Assembly (NCBI GenBank): GCA_015064625.1
Contig: SVRW01000007.1
Location: 19,794 to 83,793 of the forward strand
DNA: 64,000 nucleotides
DNA from: Oscillospiraceae bacterium
Lineage (GTDB): Bacteria; Bacillota; Clostridia; Oscillospirales; CAG-382
Reading direction: 5' to 3'
Part shown: positions 4,580 to 58,657 of the stretch, piece by piece
Numbering within the stretch: position 1 is the stretch's first letter
Layout: every line of letters begins with the position of its first letter
The notes under the pieces: model-generated
What the model was told of the DNA's origin: nothing
Seen by the model: only the letters and a program-made list of their open reading frames with translations
Databases searched by the model: none
Translations under genes and position numbers: made by a program

Positions 4580-4598
4580 AAAAAATCCTTTCTATAAT

Positions 4599-4701
4599 GC
4601 GGAATGAGGAATGCGGAATTCGGAATAAAGGTGGCTTTTCTCCATACTGTTGAAAAGCATATTTTTTTATTCCGCATTACGAATTCCGAATTCTGAATTC
4701 C
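4599..4701. repeat. Mosaic element, locus A: imperfect inverted ATTCCGN heptad arms flanking the conserved core hairpin
   Basis: Left arm 4599-4626 (GCGGAATGAGGAATGCGGAATTCGGAAT). Core hairpin GCTTTTC-N11-GAAAAGC at 4634-4658. Right arm 4669-4701 (ATTCCGC ATTACGA ATTCCGA ATTCTGA ATTCC). TCCTGCC/TCTTGCC-type units follow at 4704-4720. Confidence 0.85.
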
Positions 4702-4709
4702 ACTCCTGC

Positions 4710-5333
4710 CTATCTTGCCTTGTACGTTTCTCCAACGTTTTCAACTATTGCCTTACCGCCTGTCATATCCATAAGGGCAGATTCAACCTCTGTATACTTT
4801 TCGGGCAAAAGGTGAGCGACTAATGTTACGTTCATGCCGAATTCAGCGTTTGTATGGCTGATTTCTCGTTTATCAAGGTAATAAACAACCTTCTGATAAT
4901 CGGAATAGGAAACGGTTATCTCCATTTTTTTGAAAAGGGTGAATGTTACAACTTCACCGTCTTCAACCGCATCCTTTGCCGATGTTGAATATGCACGTAC
5001 AAGTCCTCCGGTGCCAAGAAGTATACCACCGAAATATCGGGTTACAACTATAACACAGTCTGTAATATTTTGCTTTCTCAACGTGTCGAGAAGGGGAAGC
5101 CCCGCTGTTCCGTGAGGCTCACCATCATCGCTGAAACGTTGAATGTTGTTCTCGCGGAGAACGTATGCATATACGTTGTGCCTTGCATCAGAATGCTTTT
5201 CTTTTATTTTTTTGACGAAAGCTACGGCTTCTTCTTCTGTAGCTACGGGAGCGGTATATCCGTAGAAAACGGAACGCTTTTCCGTATACTCGCTGAAGCC
5301 TTCCTTCTTTATTGAAAGGTATTCGCCCTTCAT
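4710..5333 (-). CDS. yigZ: IMPACT/YigZ family protein (UPF0029)
   Basis: RSVFYGY...HSDARHNVYAY...QRFSDDGEPHGTAGLPLL...VVTRYFGGILLGTGGLVRAYS matches the YigZ N-terminal domain. Confidence 0.85.
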   Translation of the reverse strand: MKGEYLSIKKEGFSEYTEKRSVFYGYTAPVATEEEAVAFVKKIKEKHSDARHNVYAYVLRENNIQRFSDDGEPHGTAGLPLLDTLRKQNITDCVIVVTRYFGGILLGTGGLVRAYSTSAKDAVEDGEVVTFTLFKKMEITVSYSDYQKVVYYLDKREISHTNAEFGMNVTLVAHLLPEKYTEVESALMDMTGGKAIVENVGETYKAR

Positions 5334-19495: not shown

Positions 19496-19596
19496 GCGAA
19501 GCTCCACTTCGCAATGAAATCCACTTTCAGTGGATGAAATCGCTCAAGGCGGTGAAATTCACCTTCGGTGAATGAAATGTTGCAAAGCAACGTTGA
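19496..19596 (+). repeat. Tandem array of five mini-hairpins with an 18-20-nt period
   Basis: GCGAAG-ctcca-CTTCGC; ATCCACT-ttc-AGTGGAT; ATCGC-tcaag-GCGGT; ATTCACC-ttc-GGTGAAT; ATGTTGC-aaa-GCAACGT. Units are separated by GAA. Stem sequences differ but pairing is maintained. Confidence 0.85.
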
Positions 19597-19623
19597 GGAA
19601 AATTTTCTCCCTGCGGTCGAAAA
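19597..19623 (+). repeat. 26-28-nt box, copy 1 of 5 (GGAAAATTTTCTCCCTGCGGTCGAAAA)
   Basis: Same box as at 38226, 38354, 57841 and 57911. Confidence 0.8.
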
Positions 19624-20797: not shown

Positions 20798-21070
20798 TTA
20801 AAACAAATCGCTATGAGTTCCTGTGCGAGAAAGAATCAATACAACTTCTGATTCGTCTATGCGGTATATCAATAACCAATCAGGCAATATATGACATTCT
20901 CTGAATCCGACATAATTTCCTGTCAACGAATGATCTCTATACTTTTCTTCCAATGGAATGTTGCTTGCTAAATTTTCTACTACTTTGTCAAGCAAATCCA
21001 AGTCATATCCTCGTTTCGATATAACCTTCAAGTCTTTTTTGAAGCGATTGGATAATACTATGTCAAGCAT
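20798..21070 (-). CDS. yafQ: Type II toxin, YafQ family (RelE superfamily mRNA interferase)
   Basis: FKKDLKVISKRGYDLDLL...YRDHSLTGNYVGFRECHILPDWLLIYRIDE...LSRTGTHSDLF is the YafQ signature. Confidence 0.88.
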   Translation of the reverse strand: MLDIVLSNRFKKDLKVISKRGYDLDLLDKVVENLASNIPLEEKYRDHSLTGNYVGFRECHILPDWLLIYRIDESEVVLILSRTGTHSDLF

Positions 21071-21359
21071 TTTCTAACACATCTTTTACAGCAGATTTAA
21101 AATCAGGATATCGCTTATATTTTTCGGGATGAGCTTTCATTTCGTAATATTCATTCATCGCTGCTATTGTATCTGCGTTAGGAGTTCTTGTGGATATATC
21201 AAAAGGAATTCTTTGTTCTCTTACCACGGTTTTAGCAAAGATATTAAAAGCTGCACTAACGGAAATCCCAATTTCATTGCAGAAAGCATCGAACGCTTTT
21301 TTTGTTTCTTCGTCAAGGCGAATATTAACATTTGTCTGCGCCATGCGTTTTTCCACCAC
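21063..21359 (-). CDS. dinJ: Type II antitoxin, RelB/DinJ family
   Basis: NVNIRLDEETKKAFDAFCNEIGISVSAAFNIFAKTVVREQRIPF (DinJ RHH). 8-nt overlap with yafQ. Confidence 0.88.
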   Translation of the reverse strand: MVEKRMAQTNVNIRLDEETKKAFDAFCNEIGISVSAAFNIFAKTVVREQRIPFDISTRTPNADTIAAMNEYYEMKAHPEKYKRYPDFKSAVKDVLENA

Positions 21360-21616: not shown

Positions 21617-21850
21617 TCAATGACTTTCAGGACCAAACTCTACTTTTAATTGCATTCCCATCCCTTCAGCAAGTCGTATTAAGGTACGTAAGGAAGGGTT
21701 AGCGTTTCCCTTTTCCAACTTACTGATATCACCTTGGGCAATTCCTGTAATCTTGGACAATTCCTTTTGTGTCATTCCTGAAGCGTGTCTTGCCTCAATC
21801 AATGCTTGTACAATTTCGTCTACTTCAACAGTATAGGTTGTGTTACTCAT
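21617..21850 (-). CDS. XRE-family helix-turn-helix protein (HigA/antitoxin- or regulator-like)
   Basis: MTQKELSKITGIAQGDISKLEKGNANPSLRTLIRLAEGMG. Start taken at MSNTTY (21850), which overlaps the upstream stop by 8 nt (ATGAGTAA). The ORF track's longer version begins at 21910. Confidence 0.8.
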   Translation of the reverse strand: MSNTTYTVEVDEIVQALIEARHASGMTQKELSKITGIAQGDISKLEKGNANPSLRTLIRLAEGMGMQLKVEFGPESH

Positions 21851-22061
21851 CGGTTCCAATGCTCTCCCAATCGATGTCTTCTGCATCAACGTAACCGCTT
21901 TTTTCTGCATCCTCTATTTTCTTTGCTTCCTCTGCGGTAACTTTAGTAAAATCCGGATCCCAAGCAAGAACTAATTTTTTGATAAACTCGTAAGCAAACG
22001 CCTTGTCTGCTTCTGGAAGTACATCCATTAAGCGTGCTGCTTCAATTACAATACTTGACAT
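21843..22061 (-). CDS. Small acidic protein (72 aa), candidate antitoxin/adaptor of a three-gene TA module
   Basis: AGGAGGAG RBS about 7 nt upstream of the ATG at 22061. Acidic C-terminus (EDAEKSGYVDAEDIDWESIGTDE). No family recognised. Confidence 0.6.
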   Translation of the reverse strand: MSSIVIEAARLMDVLPEADKAFAYEFIKKLVLAWDPDFTKVTAEEAKKIEDAEKSGYVDAEDIDWESIGTDE

Positions 22062-35647: not shown

Positions 35648-36775
35648 ATGAGAAAAACAGTTAAAGCCGGAATTGACAATTTATCGAAGCTTGATATTCT
35701 GAAGGAAGGAAGACTTGGCGTTTTAACCGCTCCAACAGGGGTTGATGCCAAGCTTCGCCCTACATACGAGGTTCTTGCGGAAAAATATAACGTAACCGCG
35801 CTTTTTGCTCCCGAGCATGGAATCCGCGGAGATATTCAGGCGGGCGAGCATATTTCCACGTATATTGATTCTGAAACGGGTCTTACTGTTTATAGCCTTT
35901 ACGGTGAAAACAAGCATATGACGGATGAAATGCTTGATACCTTCGATATTCTGGTGTTTGATATACAGGATGTTGGAGCAAGATATTACACCTTCATTTA
36001 TGCTCTTACCCGCTCAATGAAGCTTTGTGCGGAAAAAGGGAAGAAGGTTGTTGTTCTTGACAGACCTAATCCCGTCGGCGGAATTATTATGGAGGGCATT
36101 ACTCTTGATGAGAATTTCTCCAGCGGGGTTGGTGAATACGCAATCCCCGCAAGATATGCTCTTACCGTGGGAGAATTTGCGACCTATATAAACAAAGAAA
36201 AAAATATGGGCTGTGAGCTTACGGTTATCCCTTGCGAGGGGTGGAAAAGAGATATGTACTACGATGAAACATGTATGCCTCTTATCCTTCCTTCTCCAAA
36301 TCTTCCAACGGTGAATTCTTTCATTAACTATTTTGCGACCTGCTACTTTGAGGGAACTAATATTTCCGAAGGGAGAGGAACAACCATTCCTTTTGAAATG
36401 GTTGGTGCGCCTTTTATCGACGGAAAAAAGCTGGCAGATGCTCTTAACTCTAAAAAACTCCCAGGTGTTGTTTTCAGAAGTGCGTATTTTACCCCAACGT
36501 TCAGCAAACACAAGGGGGAAAGATGCGGCGGGGTTCAGCTTCACATTCTTGACAGAGATATATACAGACCCTTTGATGCAGGAATGTATCTTCTTGATGA
36601 AATAAGAAAATACAAAGAATTTGAATTTTTGAACGGCGGTAACTTTGAAGCAAAGCTTTTCGGTGATGATTCCATTCTTAAAGAAGATTTTTCCGTGAAT
36701 GACTGCTTCAAGCGTGCGGAAAATGATTGCGCGGAGTTCAGAAAGAAAATCGAGGGCGTGTTGATGTATGACTAA
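35648..36775 (+). CDS. DUF1343 family protein (NamZ-like exo-beta-N-acetylmuramidase family)
   Basis: GVLTAPTGVD, LFAPEHGIRGD, VYSLYGE, FDIQDVGARYYTFIY and RPNPVGG. Confidence 0.75.
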   Translation: MRKTVKAGIDNLSKLDILKEGRLGVLTAPTGVDAKLRPTYEVLAEKYNVTALFAPEHGIRGDIQAGEHISTYIDSETGLTVYSLYGENKHMTDEMLDTFDILVFDIQDVGARYYTFIYALTRSMKLCAEKGKKVVVLDRPNPVGGIIMEGITLDENFSSGVGEYAIPARYALTVGEFATYINKEKNMGCELTVIPCEGWKRDMYYDETCMPLILPSPNLPTVNSFINYFATCYFEGTNISEGRGTTIPFEMVGAPFIDGKKLADALNSKKLPGVVFRSAYFTPTFSKHKGERCGGVQLHILDRDIYRPFDAGMYLLDEIRKYKEFEFLNGGNFEAKLFGDDSILKEDFSVNDCFKRAENDCAEFRKKIEGVLMYD

Positions 36776-38060
36776 AAAAATGCATTCATCAAAATTTTGG
36801 CTTGCTCTCACCATATTCGGTTTTATGGGGCAAGTGGCATGGACTGTTGAAAATATGTATTTCAACGTGTTTATGTATAAAATGTTTGGCGCGTCTCCTG
36901 AGGATATTTCTCTTATGGTAGGCGCAAGTGCCGTTGCCGCCACTGTTACCACTGTGTTTATGGGCGCTTTATCTGACAAAATAGGAAAGCGCAAGCTTTT
37001 TATATGCGGTGGATATATACTTTGGGGAATATCAATTTTTACGTTCTGTTTTTTACGGCTTGACCTTATAGAAAAAGTGGTAGGTACTGCGGTTCAGGCT
37101 GCAACGGTTGGGATTTCCCTTGTTGTTATCCTTGACTGCTTGATGACGTTTTTCGGCTCTACTGCTAACGATGCGGCTTTTAACGCATGGGTCACGGATA
37201 TGACTGACAGCACAAACAGAGGTGCGGCAGAGGGAATAAACTCTATGATGCCAATGCTGGCTGTCCTTGCAGTTTTCGGCGGATTCATGGCGTTTGACCT
37301 GAACAAATCGGAAAGCTGGACATCAATATTCGCTATTATAGGAGTTTGTGTTATAGTTGTTGGTATTTCGGGGTTTTTTATTATAGAAAAGGATAAAAAC
37401 GTACCGACAAAAAGCGGATACTTGAAAAACGTTGTATACGGCTTTTTACCGTCAACTGTCAAAGAAAATCTTTCTTTGTATTTTCATCTCTTGATGTTTA
37501 TTATTTTCAACGTTTCCATACAGATTTTTATGCCTTATTTGATAATCTACTATGAGCAGACGTTGAAAATGGCAAATTATACACTGATTATGGCTCCTGC
37601 CGTTATTCTTGCCGCTGTTGCCACGTTCTTCTGGGGCAAGGTGTATGACAAAAAGGGATTTGATTTTTCTTCCGCATTTTCTGTTTGCTTTCTTGCTTTG
37701 GGATACGTGGTTTTAGTCGTTGCAAAGAGCATGGTTCCGGTGTTTATTGGTTCGCTTTTTATGATGTGCGGTTATCTTTGCTCAATGGCGGTTTTTGGCG
37801 CAAAAATACGTGACTTGACTCCGATGGGAAAATCGGGTATGTTCCAAGGAGTGAGAATTTTCTCCCAAGTTCTTATACCGGGCGTATTAGGCCCGTACAT
37901 AGGGCAGGCGGTTTTGAAAAACGCTGACAAGATAACAAACAGTGACGGAACAACGTCGTTCTTGCCAAACGTGAATATTTTTATAGCAGCCTTTGCTGCT
38001 TTAGGCGTTTTGGTTGTTTTGGCGGCGGCAAAACGATTTTTTATGAAGATTAAAAAGTGA
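36768..38060 (+). CDS. MFS transporter
   Basis: About 12 TMs, with a GALSDKIGKRK loop-2/3 motif. Confidence 0.8.
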   Translation: MTKKMHSSKFWLALTIFGFMGQVAWTVENMYFNVFMYKMFGASPEDISLMVGASAVAATVTTVFMGALSDKIGKRKLFICGGYILWGISIFTFCFLRLDLIEKVVGTAVQAATVGISLVVILDCLMTFFGSTANDAAFNAWVTDMTDSTNRGAAEGINSMMPMLAVLAVFGGFMAFDLNKSESWTSIFAIIGVCVIVVGISGFFIIEKDKNVPTKSGYLKNVVYGFLPSTVKENLSLYFHLLMFIIFNVSIQIFMPYLIIYYEQTLKMANYTLIMAPAVILAAVATFFWGKVYDKKGFDFSSAFSVCFLALGYVVLVVAKSMVPVFIGSLFMMCGYLCSMAVFGAKIRDLTPMGKSGMFQGVRIFSQVLIPGVLGPYIGQAVLKNADKITNSDGTTSFLPNVNIFIAAFAALGVLVVLAAAKRFFMKIKK

Positions 38061-38128
38061 ATATTTGAAAAAAGTTATCTTTCCTCGCTTCGCTCGAAAA
38101 TCATTTATATAAAATATTAGTCTAATTC

Positions 38129-38170
38129 AATGCTCAATTCAAGGTTCAACGCCCCGAATTGAGCATTTTT
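38129..38170 (+). terminator. MFS terminator, which is also the hairpin module of the mosaic element family (locus B)
   Basis: ATGCTCAATTC-N15-GAATTGAGCAT followed by TTTTAT. The GCTCNATTCAAGG...CCCCGAANNGAGC core is homologous to the hairpins at 58118-58149 and 58533-58564. Confidence 0.75.
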
Positions 38171-38192
38171 ATATTCCGCATTCCGCTTTTAA

Positions 38193-38220
38193 ATTGAAAA
38201 TGGAAAATGGAAAATTGAAA
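38193..38220. repeat. ATTGAAA/ATGGAAA heptad array (4 units)
   Basis: ATTGAAA ATGGAAA ATGGAAA ATTGAAA. The same heptads occur at 57878-57905. Confidence 0.85.
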
Positions 38221-38225
38221 GTTAA

Positions 38226-38251
38226 GGAAATTTTTCTCCCGTTGGTCGAAA
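38226..38251 (+). repeat. 26-28-nt box, copy 2
   Basis: GGAAATTTTTCTCCCGTTGGTCGAAA. Confidence 0.9.
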
Positions 38252-38257
38252 CCATAA

Positions 38258-38348
38258 GGCAAGAGAGAATAGGCAAGAGGGAAGAGGCAGGAGGCAAGAG
38301 GGAAGAGGCAGGAGGCAAGAGGGAAGAGGCAGGAGGCAAGAGGCAGGA
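38258..38348. repeat. Thirteen GGNANGA heptads forming a 21-nt higher-order tandem repeat
   Basis: (GGCAAGA GGGAAGA GGCAGGA) three times plus partial units. This creates four AGGAGG strings on the plus strand. The array is bracketed by box copies 2 and 3. Confidence 0.9.
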
Positions 38349-38353
38349 GGGGA

Positions 38354-38381
38354 GGAAATTTTTCTCCCGTTGGTCGAAAAA
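38354..38381 (+). repeat. 26-28-nt box, copy 3
   Basis: GGAAATTTTTCTCCCGTTGGTCGAAAAA, identical to copy 2 over 26 nt. Confidence 0.9.
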
Positions 38382-38395
38382 TATTTTATATAATT

Positions 38396-38483
38396 GCTTT
38401 TCGAACGCAGAGAGAAAAGCTACCTTTATTCCGAATTCCGCATTCCGAATTCCGCATTCCGAATTCCGCATTCCGCATTCCGC
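38396..38483 (+). repeat. Conserved core hairpin plus eight ATTCCGN heptads
   Basis: GCTTTTC-gaacgcagaga-GAAAAGC (38396-38420), TACCTTT, then ATTCCGA/ATTCCGC eight times (38428-38483). The array ends 8 nt before the RadC-like stop codon. Confidence 0.9.
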
Positions 38484-38491
38484 ATTTTACT

Positions 38492-39166
38492 TTACCTTTT
38501 CCAATTATCCGTATCGGCAAGGTCGTATAAAATTCCGTAATATCTACCTTTATTTACAACGAAATGTTCCATGAGCTTTATTCCTGATGCTGAAAAATAC
38601 GATTCCATTTTCCTTGTAGCGTGATAATCCTCCATGGAATATTTCATATATGAGCTTGCATGGTTATGAGCTATAATAACCTTTTTGGCACAAAGCACAT
38701 TTGCTCTTTTTATCATTGAATCAACGTCTATAAAAACTGAACCCAAATCTCCATTTGCGGTCTTTTCAGCGTGGAGCACGTTGTTGAATTCCCCCATAAA
38801 CACGGTATATAGCCCTTCTTCTTTGTTGCTCCCGACAAAATTTTTTATAAATTCTCCTGCACTTCTATGGGAGTCAAGAATATTTTCTTTTGTATTCAAT
38901 TCCGAGGAGAGTTTCATTATGGAAATCAGAGCCTTTATTAAAGGAAAGTATTCGCTTTTTATTTCTCCTTCGAAAAGCTTTTCAGGGACGGGCATAAATA
39001 TTCCGCCCTCGCAAAAAAGCTTTTTGTATACAAGCTCAGCAACGTTTTTGTATTCATCTTCAGGGAAAGAATAATGAAAAATGATTTCAAAAAGCTCTTT
39101 ATGGGTGGGGATATATAGCCCGCTTTTATATTCGATAAGCATATTATTGAAATTTTTTTCTTCCAT
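38492..39166 (-). CDS. RadC-like JAB/MPN domain protein (variant motif HNHASS)
   Basis: C-terminal VIIAHNHASSYMKYSMEDYHATRKM resembles the RadC HNHPSG...S.eD motif. Start taken at MEEKNF (AGGAGG RBS). The ORF track's longer version starts at 39217. Confidence 0.6.
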   Translation of the reverse strand: MEEKNFNNMLIEYKSGLYIPTHKELFEIIFHYSFPEDEYKNVAELVYKKLFCEGGIFMPVPEKLFEGEIKSEYFPLIKALISIMKLSSELNTKENILDSHRSAGEFIKNFVGSNKEEGLYTVFMGEFNNVLHAEKTANGDLGSVFIDVDSMIKRANVLCAKKVIIAHNHASSYMKYSMEDYHATRKMESYFSASGIKLMEHFVVNKGRYYGILYDLADTDNWKR

Positions 39167-57820: not shown

Positions 57821-57840
57821 GACGCGAAGGAAAGAGGAAA

Positions 57841-57867
57841 GGAAATTTTTCTTCCGCCGATCGAAAA
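57841..57867 (+). repeat. 26-28-nt box, copy 4
   Basis: GGAAATTTTTCTTCCGCCGATCGAAAA. Confidence 0.8.
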
Positions 57868-57877
57868 ACGTTATTTA

Positions 57878-58015
57878 ATTGAAAATTGAAAATGGAAAGT
57901 TGAAAATTATGGTAATTTTTCTCCCACCGGTCGAAAAATAAATTCTTGTTTACCCTTACCTCTTGCCTTTGCATCAGCCTTTACAATTTTCAACTTTCAA
58001 CTTTCAATTTCCAAT
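57878..58015. repeat. Inverted heptad arms enclosing box copy 5
   Basis: ATTGAAA ATTGAAA ATGGAAA GTTGAAA (57878-57905). Box GGTAATTTTTCTCCCACCGGTCGAAAA (57911-57937). Inverted TTTCAAC TTTCAAC TTTCAAT TTCCAAT (57988-58015). Confidence 0.85.
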
Positions 58016-58073
58016 TTCCCATCGCTCCTTTGATATTGTATCATGCAAGGTGTGTCAGTTATCACACATTTTT

Positions 58074-58150
58074 AATTCGGAATTCGGAATGCGGAATTCG
58101 GAATAAAAAAAGCTCGGTTCGGGGTTTTACCCTTGAATCGAGCGTTTTTT
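58074..58150 (+). terminator. Left inverted arm of locus C: AATTCGG/AATGCGG heptads plus a terminator-like hairpin
   Basis: Heptads at 58074-58104. AAAAAAA-GCTCGGTTCGGGG-tttt-ACCCTTGAATCGAGC-GTTTTTT: a 13-bp stem whose non-Watson-Crick pairs are G-T on the plus strand. Likely terminator of the CBM9-like gene. Confidence 0.7.
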
Positions 58151-58195
58151 GATTGTTTTATTTGTGAATGTTTTAGTTTATTTTTCGATAATTTA

Positions 58196-58277
58196 TTTTT
58201 CGAACGCAGTGAGAAAAATTTCCATTATTCCGCATTCCGCATTCCGCATTGAAAAAGTTCCGCATTCCGCATTATGC
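58196..58277 (+). repeat. Conserved core hairpin plus ATTCCGC heptads (locus C)
   Basis: TTTTTC-gaacgcagtga-GAAAAA (58196-58218; same 11-nt loop as locus B with one difference). ATTCCGC three times (58227-58247), then further units to 58277. Confidence 0.85.
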
Positions 58278-58278
58278 A

Positions 58279-58392
58279 TAGGTTTAGGTTTAGGTTTAGG
58301 ATTAGGTTTAGGATTAGGATTAGGATTAGGATTAGGTTTAGGATTAGGATTAGGATTAGGATTAGGTTTAGGATTAGGATTAGGTTTAGGAT
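58279..58392. repeat. Nineteen-unit hexamer array TAGGTT/TAGGAT
   Basis: Unit order by variant base is TTT A T AAAA T AAAA T AA T A, which partly gives a 30-nt higher-order period. Confidence 0.95.
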
Positions 58393-58530
58393 TACTGAGC
58401 AAAAATTAGCAAAAATAGCATTTGCTACCATTTGCTGTTTTTGCAATGGTTTACTATTTAACTTTTGCACTTGCTGTTTTTGCTCACATTAGTTCGAATT
58501 TGCTGTTTTATTATGACTTCAAAATAGATA

Positions 58531-58647
58531 AAGCTCGATTCAAGGGTAAATCCTCGAACCAAGCTTTATTATTTCGAATTACGAATTACGCATTCCGAAT
58601 TGAACAAGTTACGCATTCCGAATTACTCCTGCCTCCTGCCTCTTGCC
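58531..58647 (-). terminator. Right inverted arm of locus C: hairpin plus ATTNCGN heptads plus TCCTGCC/TCTTGCC heptads (likely murA terminator region)
   Basis: The reverse complement of 58531-58601 aligns with 58074-58150 (about 80 percent by eye). The hairpin mismatches become G-U only on the minus strand, where TTATCTATTTT follows. Heptads TCCTGCC TCCTGCC TCTTGCC at 58627-58647. Confidence 0.65.
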
Positions 58648-58657
58648 TTGGCGAAGC

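Follow-up and report, generated by a model that had tools for sequence, protein, structure and literature searches.

A heptamer and hairpin-box mosaic in the spacer between convergent MFS transporter and RadC-like genes of an Oscillospiraceae bacterium

The spacer separating two convergent genes of an uncultured gut or rumen bacterium, which the names of proteins in public sources place in Clostridia/Oscillospiraceae, an MFS_1 transporter gene and a RadC-like JAB-domain gene, was analysed within a stretch of 64,000 nt of contig SVRW01000007.1 (assembly GCA_015064625.1), hereafter called the window, to which all coordinates without a contig prefix refer. This spacer of 431 nt (38061-38491), designated locus B, is occupied by hairpin-forming boxes and by tandem heptamers of three types, H1 (ATTCCGM), H2 (GGNANGA) and H3 (ATKGAAA). 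Locus B is probably a fast-evolving, lineage-specific and non-coding mosaic of heptamers and boxes, shaped around a terminator by slippage and local recombination, and devoid of a dedicated product. It belongs with the long-known and unexplained intergenic heptamer arrays and small palindromic repeats, and is not a new RNA gene. The mosaic lies at a site where sister genomes have just a plain bidirectional terminator.

Comparison with relatives revealed how variable this spacer is. A close relative, L248 (GCA_045606585.1), whose RadC is 89% identical (200 of 225 residues), displayed the arrangement of locus B with a single box, four ATTCCGM heptads versus eight and no GGNANGA heptad versus 13, the loop equivalent to 38380-38395 being 33 nt long and of other sequence. 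The window carries exactly 128 extra nt relative to L248, and these correspond to the GGNANGA array plus the second box. The original prediction had proposed that direct boxes bracketing an array reflect duplication by slippage or recombination between boxes, or else a modular unit, and this exact box-to-box unit fits duplication or deletion by such events. The whole complex is lacking in L249 (GCA_045596755.1), a relative nearer still when judged by MFS identity, where the MFS protein is 98% identical (421/431) and RadC is identical at 203 of 225 residues: its spacer of 66 nt holds a plain bidirectional hairpin terminator of unrelated sequence, without any repeat module. Plain terminators and no arrays were likewise found in the spacers of 90 to 278 nt of three species in which synteny is kept (L123, L124 and L125; MFS 77-79%). 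The GGNANGA array is therefore strain-specific, since it is missing from the nearest relatives. At least four copies of the H1 heptad were present in L250, and the segment 38067-38118 was identical in L122, a contig of the same assembly as L248. At shorter range, contigs whose MFS or RadC protein is that of the window, found in eight or more metagenome samples, had exactly its spacer, with no copy-number variation within the clone; the comparison of array copy number among strains that had been suggested at the outset thus gave identity within the clone and zero copies in L248 and L249. Several other contigs end within these arrays (L002 and L003 at position 38268).

The features of locus B and its two flanking genes are as follows.

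36768-38060, plus strand: MFS_1 transporter gene, with its TGA stop codon at 38058-38060
38067-38118, plus strand: left arm of a 52-nt inverted repeat, directly 3' of the MFS stop, made of a degenerate box (about 38073-38099) and an AT-rich tail
38129-38172, plus strand: T hairpin, with a 12-bp perfect outer stem and inner GG/CC pairs, then UUUUUAU
38173-38186, plus strand: short H1 heptad array, ATTCCGC twice
38191-38220, plus strand: 4.3 H3 heptads, ATTGAAA/ATGGAAA (Tandem Repeats Finder, TRF; 91% matches)
38225-38251, plus strand: box 1, 27 nt (AGGAAATTTTTCTCCCGTTGGTCGAAA)
38257-38350, plus strand: H2 array of 13.4 GGNANGA heptads, 3.8 copies of (GGCAAGA GGGAAGA GGCAGGA) (TRF)
38353-38379, plus strand: box 2, a repeat of the box 1 sequence 128 nt further downstream
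38380-38395, no strand assigned: AT-rich loop separating box 2 from the inverted box
38396-38420, minus strand: inverted box, GCTTTTC-N11-GAAAAGC
38428-38483, minus strand: H1 array, reading (ATTCCGM)8 on the plus strand, with a 14-nt super-period
38492-39166/39217, minus strand: RadC-like JAB-domain gene, with its stop codon at 38492-38494

The two arms of the inverted repeat, 38067-38118 and 38380-38431, match at 83%, and the segment 38187-38427 is flanked on both sides by ATTCCGC heptads of one orientation. Read in the sense of RadC, the H1 array is (KCGGAAT)8 and begins 8 nt past the stop codon; it has no inverted partner at this locus. Every item that the original prediction had placed in locus B was recovered within 38061-38491, although some descriptions had to be amended. 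The two boxes, given as identical over 26 nt from 38226 and 38354, are present, but their identity covers 27 nt, from 38225 and 38353. The array of thirteen GGNANGA heptads is there, with 12 of the 13 fitting this pattern and the second reading GAGAATA. The motif GCTTTTC-N11-GAAAAGC was found at 38396-38420 as described, except that it is not a separate core hairpin: it is a box in reverse orientation, which, once reverse-complemented, agrees with the box at 19603 in all but 2 of 21 nt. The eight ATTCCGA/ATTCCGC heptads ending 8 nt before the RadC stop needed no amendment.

The three heptamer arrays bear traces of their mode of growth. TRF counted 13.4, 8.4 and 4.3 copies of 7-nt units at locus B, and the arrays contain higher-order units of 14 and 21 nt with 96-97% identity, among them the 21-nt super-period of the H2 array (3.8 copies, 96% identity). 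Such higher-order units are the signature of recent expansion by slipped-strand events or unequal exchange. Dimers of ATTCCGM gave 21 matches in the window versus 0.18 expected. The plus strand of the H2 array is 89% purine across 94 bp, and these 94 nt contain seven GGA and four AGGAGG strings. None of the four AGGAGG strings has a start codon 3-12 nt downstream, as had been noticed from the sequence alone. The minus strand, which is the sense of RadC, has 50% C and 10% G over about 100 nt, in a tract reaching from 130 to 230 nt past the RadC stop. Both strands were predicted to be unstructured (ΔG of -5 kcal/mol with a centroid of 0, and about 0 for the minus-strand tract). All repeat units of the family carry GGA or GAA on their purine-rich strand, and for all array types of the window the purine/GGA-rich strand is the sense of the upstream gene at two further repeat loci, A and C, and of RadC at locus B.

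The four locus B boxes are copies of one hairpin family, three of them direct and one inverted; the degenerate member of the direct set, at 38073-38099, matches the box at 67%. No box match is expected in shuffled sequence (0), while the TTTTC-N11-GAAAA hairpin occurs 7 times in 64 kb versus 0.78 expected and the hairpin-arm motif GCTCRRTTCRRGG gave 7 matches versus 0.59. The inverted box at 38396-38420 is a member of a 'core' subfamily, members of which always abut an ATTCCGM array. In an alignment of 11 copies, 91% of the cells of the 7-bp stem were paired, and members of the 'core' subfamily have GC/CG in place of AU/UA at the two outer stem pairs. The alignment thus supports the stem, with covariation scoring 0.203 versus 0.077 in shuffles, although this may reflect one subfamily split only. 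The T hairpin family has three copies in the window, and the homology of the hairpin at 38129 with the arms of locus C, already proposed earlier, was upheld by two locus C hairpins (58112-58143 and 58533-58564) with compensatory changes. A CRISPR array was considered for the box-array-box arrangement and rejected: there are two direct box copies only, with no further copies in register, and the 'spacer' is a low-complexity heptad array.

Transcription signals were found on one side of the spacer. The hairpin at 38129-38167 (ΔG of -18.2 kcal/mol, z of -6.3, or -6.26 unrounded) is directly followed by UUUUUAU, and the two together constitute a canonical intrinsic terminator serving the MFS gene. 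A simple terminator scan had skipped it, owing to limits on loop and stem, and it was revealed by folding. With this predicted terminator at 38129-38172, all arrays therefore sit downstream of it, the H2 array about 90 nt farther on the plus strand. The promoter scan gave no promoter-like site in the locus B spacer, and no intrinsic terminator was found between the RadC stop and the arrays. Folds of the whole locus were no better than those of shuffled sequences on either strand (z of +0.63 and -1.21). Nothing in the spacer reached the gathering score in Rfam, matches at E ≤ 10 being at chance level, and tRNA or tmRNA genes were absent. The two open reading frames (ORFs) spanning the arrays had no Pfam match and were not conserved in relatives.

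Taken with the comparison of strains, these data suggest how locus B may have arisen. The GGNANGA array would have been gained or lost through slippage or recombination between the two 27-nt direct boxes, and would have grown by slippage of heptads or of 21-mers. Neither a dedicated RNA nor a protein would be made from the locus. Any effect would be exerted in cis on the RadC transcript, because RadC has no intrinsic terminator before the arrays. The (KCGGAAU)8 stretch that would follow the stop codon of this transcript by 8 nt resembles the repetitive extragenic palindromic (REP) elements located within 15 nt of stops, and the C-rich, G-poor and putatively unstructured antisense of the GGNANGA array looks like a Rho-loading (rut) site. 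A cis role of the arrays, REP-like or rut-like, is possible. Antisense transcription from the RadC side is possible as well, and its product would be a CU-rich RNA, not a GGA-rich one. Locus B may be taken as a caution, as an ordered array resembling Shine-Dalgarno sequences proved to be a strain-specific expansion of simple sequence and not a conserved RNA gene.

Related repeats were found elsewhere in the window, at two more complex loci and at one isolated site.

4596-4720, no strand assigned: locus A, with (KCGGAAT)4, a box-like hairpin, (ATTCCGM)5 and two copies of TCYTGCC
19597-19623, plus strand: isolated box copy with 4 mismatches, its AT-rich tail as in locus B; a Gut-1 RNA match lies 14 nt before it, and dapF downstream
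57830-58650, no strand assigned: locus C, between a convergent CBM9-domain gene and aroA

Locus A separates two minus-strand genes, one of them UPF0029/YigZ-like and the other rhaM. Locus C comprises two boxes flanking ATTGAAA heptads, inverted heptad arms, two T hairpins and an inverted box, together with ATTCCGM arrays, 19 copies of TAGGAT/TAGGTT and three of TCCTGCC; at 57877-57908, H3 heptads precede a box, as in locus B. Locus B shares with loci A and C a set of modules made up of T hairpin, box and three heptads (ATTCCGM, GGCARGA and ATKGAAA), in agreement with the modular family predicted earlier, and the order and length of the modules differ among the three. The hexamer array of locus C (58279-58394) lies between ATTCCGC heptads and a T hairpin, and its plus strand is free of C. 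The isolated box closes a segment (19512-19623) that consists of the Gut-1 RNA match (57.7 bits, three hairpins and UGAAAU linkers), an extra hairpin and the box copy. The window also encodes a YafQ/ParE-type toxin and RelB antitoxin pair (20798-21359), with an HTH_3 regulator nearby (21617-21910).

A scan of metagenome contigs with the box pattern gave only chance matches in coding sequences and unrelated repeats, with no relatives of the box among them. It turned up a conserved element of about 90 nt (e.g. L183:560-660), CAGCTATAAGCTCGTCGTTTCACTCCTCGGCCTTCGGCTAATTTTTCTCCCGTTCGGTCGAAAAACTACTCATAGCTG, carried by contigs L169, L174, L183, L184, L185, L194, L198 and L204; its outer stem varies in a seemingly compensatory way, as judged by eye only, and the two copies scanned against Rfam (L169 and L183) had no match at gathering score. 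Contigs L177, L206 (6700-6950) and L209, from fermentation and other metagenomes, harboured tandem units of about 119 nt, each with a box-like TTTTTCTCCCTTACGGTCGAAAA; these have no relation to the family of the window and no Rfam match.

The H1 heptad is not confined to this bacterium. A scan with the pattern (ATTCCGM)4 against one genome per species found (ATTCCGM)n arrays in no fewer than 117 contigs, which represent about 17 phylum-level groups and GC contents of 40-74%; the figures given here cover the matches listed, all from metagenome-assembled genomes (MAGs), one of them a closed long-read chromosome of 9.5 Mb. The hosts included Clostridia, Acidobacteriota, Planctomycetota, Nitrospirota, Myxococcota and other 'delta' groups, Gemmatimonadota, Chloroflexota, Bacteroidota, Verrucomicrobiota and others, as well as a cyanobacterial MAG (examples among L005-L121: L012:6681-6775, L015:6140-6243, L051:2108-2224 and L033:2487-2571). 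A period of 7 was dominant among tandem repeats at these loci, and the other units were mainly NNGGAAT variants. In inverted pairs, (NNGGAAT)n preceded (ATTCCNN)n in 53 cases and followed it in 5. On the NNGGAAT strand, 87 of 236 arrays had the stop codon of a long ORF within 20 nt upstream; the opposite strand gave 21 of 236, and random positions 4.5%. With crude gene calls, the median distance was 5-12 nt for stops and 30-70 nt for starts. The two arms of the pairs did not mirror each other at the variable dinucleotide beyond shuffled controls (0.634 versus 0.620, p=0.5), and inverted pairs were not enriched in convergent spacers (tandem, convergent and divergent counts of 26, 9 and 4, versus a background of 65, 18 and 17%). 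Sequences between the arms were locus-specific, and a MITE (miniature inverted-repeat transposable element) with a conserved core was rejected because no dispersed centre common to them emerged when the array centres were compared by BLAST with all fetched loci. Apart from ABC ATPases and one phage lineage, all-against-all BLASTP of the ORFs of 158 loci revealed no gene recurring beside the arrays. No paper with a tandem GCGGAAT heptamer came up in a literature search for the repeat strings. The regularities of the GGAAT arrays, namely their polarity relative to stop codons, the polarity of the pairs and the independence of the arms, point to a transcript-level or transcription-coupled constraint.

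Phage contigs contained ATTCCGM arrays in 41 stretches, compared with 2 for a scrambled control, 6 for a near variant and 20 for GGCARGA; the control heptamer CATTCGM was poorly chosen, being one deletion away from ATTCCGM and forming inverted arrays itself. One phage lineage (IMG/VR, GC 0.55-0.58; contigs L127, L131, L132, L134, L138, L142, L146, L147, L154, L158, L160, L161, L166 and L167) harbours an intergenic element composed of (KCGGAAT)4, two hairpins and (ATTCCGM)4, situated between a stop codon and the next ribosome-binding site. A second array of this lineage lies in frame in the linker of an ATPase-like ORF (e.g. L131:5232-5259). Two contigs of 95 and 157 kb classified as 'viral' (IMGVR_UViG_3300023029_000004 and 3300023035_000005; L229, L230, L237, L240 and L242), with a GC content of 0.33-0.38 in the stretches sampled, showed many perfect palindromes of the types (TCCTGCC)n-TACG-(GCAGGAG)n and (CTAATC)n/(GATTAG)n, in which the units are the H2 heptad and the TAGGAT hexamer of the window, the pyrimidine arm coming first; a jumbo phage and an organelle are the candidate sources of these contigs.

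Several of these observations weigh against locus B being only a by-product of slippage and local recombination. The element of the phage lineage is better conserved than its flanking genes, 11 of 12 phages having 4/4 copies, which shows that ATTCCGM arrays need be neither neutral nor unstable in every case. The same GGAAT core with a fixed gene-relative polarity across phyla is not explained by slippage alone and hints at a recognised motif. Moreover, the box-array-box change cannot be polarised as a gain or a loss. In L122, the two ATTCCGC heptads are followed by a long ATTYCGM array; L122:2702-2783 and L248:3660-3865 have just 19 nt in common (TTTATATTCCGCATTCCGC) before they diverge, and this discord within one assembly reflects either two haplotypes (strain heterogeneity) or an assembly tangle or break induced by the repeats exactly at the heptads. 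It is conceivable, although we consider it rather unlikely, that (NNGGAAT)n arrays are an undescribed, horizontally spread cis element acting as 'punctuation' of gene ends in bacteria and phages. The GGAAT strand would then lie in the sense of the upstream gene, at most about 15 nt from its stop and usually with an inverted (ATTCCNN)n arm, and would be read at the transcript level by widely conserved machinery, such as Rho, the terminating ribosome or an RNA-binding protein. Locus B would be one fast-evolving instance, and GGNANGA, ATKGAAA and TAGGAT would be lineage-specific variants with purines in the sense strand.

The main rival explanation is selection on locus B itself, where arrays and hairpins would be retained for their effect on how the flanking mRNAs end. 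The polarity seen across genomes and the conserved phage copy lend it credibility, yet it appears doubtful to us. The stretch (KCGGAAU)n after the stop, or the hairpins formed by it and a partner arm, could act like REP elements by stalling ribosomes or by protecting from exonucleases, and the C-rich antisense could offer Rho-loading sites halting RadC read-through and antisense transcription into the converging genes. Such a role would account for the strong gene-relative and pair polarity across at least 117 loci and for the proximity of the listed arrays to stop codons (starting at a median of 5-12 nt), and it is consistent with the purine/GGA-rich strand being placed in gene sense in the window, with the composition of the minus-strand tract (50% C, 10% G, ΔG about 0), with the lack of an intrinsic terminator of RadC before the arrays, with the conserved phage element and with the precedent of REP elements (PMC12306157). 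However, some close relatives have just a plain terminator and others lack the GGNANGA heptads, and the inverted pairs occur near background frequency in tandem, convergent and divergent spacers. The arms fail to co-vary, so perfect pairing is not selected; the RadC-side array of locus B does not even have an inverted partner, and Rho dependence is purely inferred. A non-autonomous mobile element, similar to a MITE, to a small dispersed repeat (SDR) or to BOX, is improbable, whether the whole complex or only the box of 26-28 nt had been inserted into the spacer or the array. Its termini would be the 52-nt inverted repeat, which at 83% bounds 38067-38431, and the enclosure of 38187-38427 by ATTCCGC heptads of the same orientation, the presence of box, T hairpin and heptads at four window sites beside unrelated housekeeping genes, and the presence/absence polymorphism between near-identical genomes could all be read as marks of insertion. 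This inverted repeat is, however, composed of box copies that also stand alone elsewhere, the borders show no target-site duplication and no two copies of the whole element are alike. Module order varies by locus, array centres elsewhere are locus-specific, and the spacer of L249 is replaced by a different terminator and is not a clean empty site. No transposase was found in the 20 window ORFs tested nor beside arrays at 158 loci, and the box scan of metagenome contigs yielded chance or unrelated matches only.

The original prediction had speculated that RNA of the GGA/AGGAGG array titrates ribosomal anti-Shine-Dalgarno sequences or a GGA-binding protein, such as a CsrA-like one. The density of GGA (seven) and AGGAGG (four) strings within an unstructured stretch of 94 nt, and GGA or GAA in the purine strand of every unit of the family, speak for this idea, but it would now be very surprising if it held: the array lies past a strong terminator and has no promoter, its GGA motifs are not displayed in hairpin loops, it has no Rfam match, and it is missing in the nearest relatives. 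Absence from closely related genomes had been named in advance as evidence against a functional RNA, and it was observed in both L248 and L249. GGAAT arrays also occur in Bacteroidota and in a cyanobacterial MAG, and to our knowledge Bacteroidota and Cyanobacteria are generally without CsrA; nor was csrA found among the small window ORFs tested. An element acting at the DNA level, be it a contingency locus for phase variation, a protein-binding array or a purine tract blocking polymerases through H-DNA or R-loops, is extremely improbable. The 94-bp tract is 89% purine on one strand, heptad numbers vary between strains, and regulators bind heptamer arrays in other systems (PMC5930380; the ctx promoter). 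Nevertheless, locus B lies between two 3' ends and its copy number can therefore switch neither a promoter nor a reading frame; the gene-relative polarity points to a strand-specific constraint at the transcript level, and no within-clone copy-number variation was seen in at least eight samples. A mosaic produced by slippage and local recombination thus remains our preferred explanation of locus B.

Among known systems, sponge RNAs of the CsrB/RsmZ type are conserved in related genomes, have their own promoter and terminator and expose GGA in the loops of hairpins. Locus B resembles them by its many GGA motifs in a short stretch, but differs by lacking such a promoter and terminator unit, looped GGA and conservation. 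Pneumococcal BOX elements follow a fixed order, boxA-boxB(n)-boxC. They share with locus B the character of modular intergenic repeats that fold into hairpins and have an internal module of variable copy number, whereas their sequences are unrelated and the order of modules in the window changes at each locus. In cyanobacteria, SDRs of 21-27 nt reportedly nest in heptamer arrays (an observation attributed to Elhai, 2008), and short tandemly repeated repetitive (STRR) heptamers are said to have been described by Mazel in 1990. The likeness is in the combination of hairpin-capable repeats of 21-27 nt with heptamer arrays and in their absence from orthologous sites of relatives; locus B differs by its occurrence in Clostridia and by unrelated sequences, and the box would be a putative mobile element only by analogy.

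The REP elements and bacterial interspersed mosaic elements (BIMEs) of enterobacteria are closer in position. They affect the translation and stability of upstream mRNA, and REP elements located at most 15 nt from a stop codon stall ribosomes (PMC12306157). They recall the repeats described here as extragenic palindromes in transcribed spacers, many of them within 15 nt of the upstream stop and often in inverted pairs, and the H1 array lies in such a stop-proximal 3' untranslated position, 8 nt from the RadC stop. A REP element is, however, a unit palindrome, 20-40 nt long, that has a conserved motif and is linked to RAYT transposases, whereas arms of the locus B type are tandem heptads without co-variation, and no RAYT was seen in the 20 window ORFs scanned. 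The TAACTGA heptamers of Beggiatoaceae, Cyanobacteria and Bacteroidetes, which occur across phyla upstream of start codons with an orientation bias (MacGregor 2015, PMC4679880), offer a parallel for the GGAAT arrays: in both cases, one heptamer forms short intergenic arrays in distant phyla, with an orientation bias and no evident mechanism of transfer. TAACTGA repeats are direct repeats just upstream of start codons, with one indirect repeat reported; GGAAT arrays, unlike them, are found just downstream of stops and usually as inverted pairs.

The closest match is with the long simple sequence repeats (LSSRs) and intergenic heptanucleotide repeats of prokaryotes (PMC4679880; Mori et al., bioRxiv 10.1101/309039), which are head-to-tail 7-nt units far beyond chance, intergenic, patchy among relatives, organised in higher-order units and without known function. 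In the summary of Mrazek (2007) given in PMC4679880, heptanucleotide repeats are the commonest prokaryotic LSSR and polymerase slippage is proposed as their cause. Two differences were apparent, in that three heptamers and a hexamer here alternate with hairpin boxes and a terminator in one spacer, and in that the ATTCCGM unit, found in many phyla, keeps a fixed orientation towards stop codons. Nonetheless, locus B has the properties by which LSSRs are recognised, i.e. a unit within the range of 5-11 nt repeated beyond chance, a non-coding location and differences in copy number between strains, with 8 ATTCCGM heptads in the window versus 4 in L248, and 13 GGNANGA heptads versus 0. The wider value of these results, through the GGAAT core that recurs from Clostridia to Acidobacteriota, Planctomycetota and phages, is to provide a handle on the old puzzle of why tandem repeats of 7 nt dominate prokaryotic intergenic DNA.

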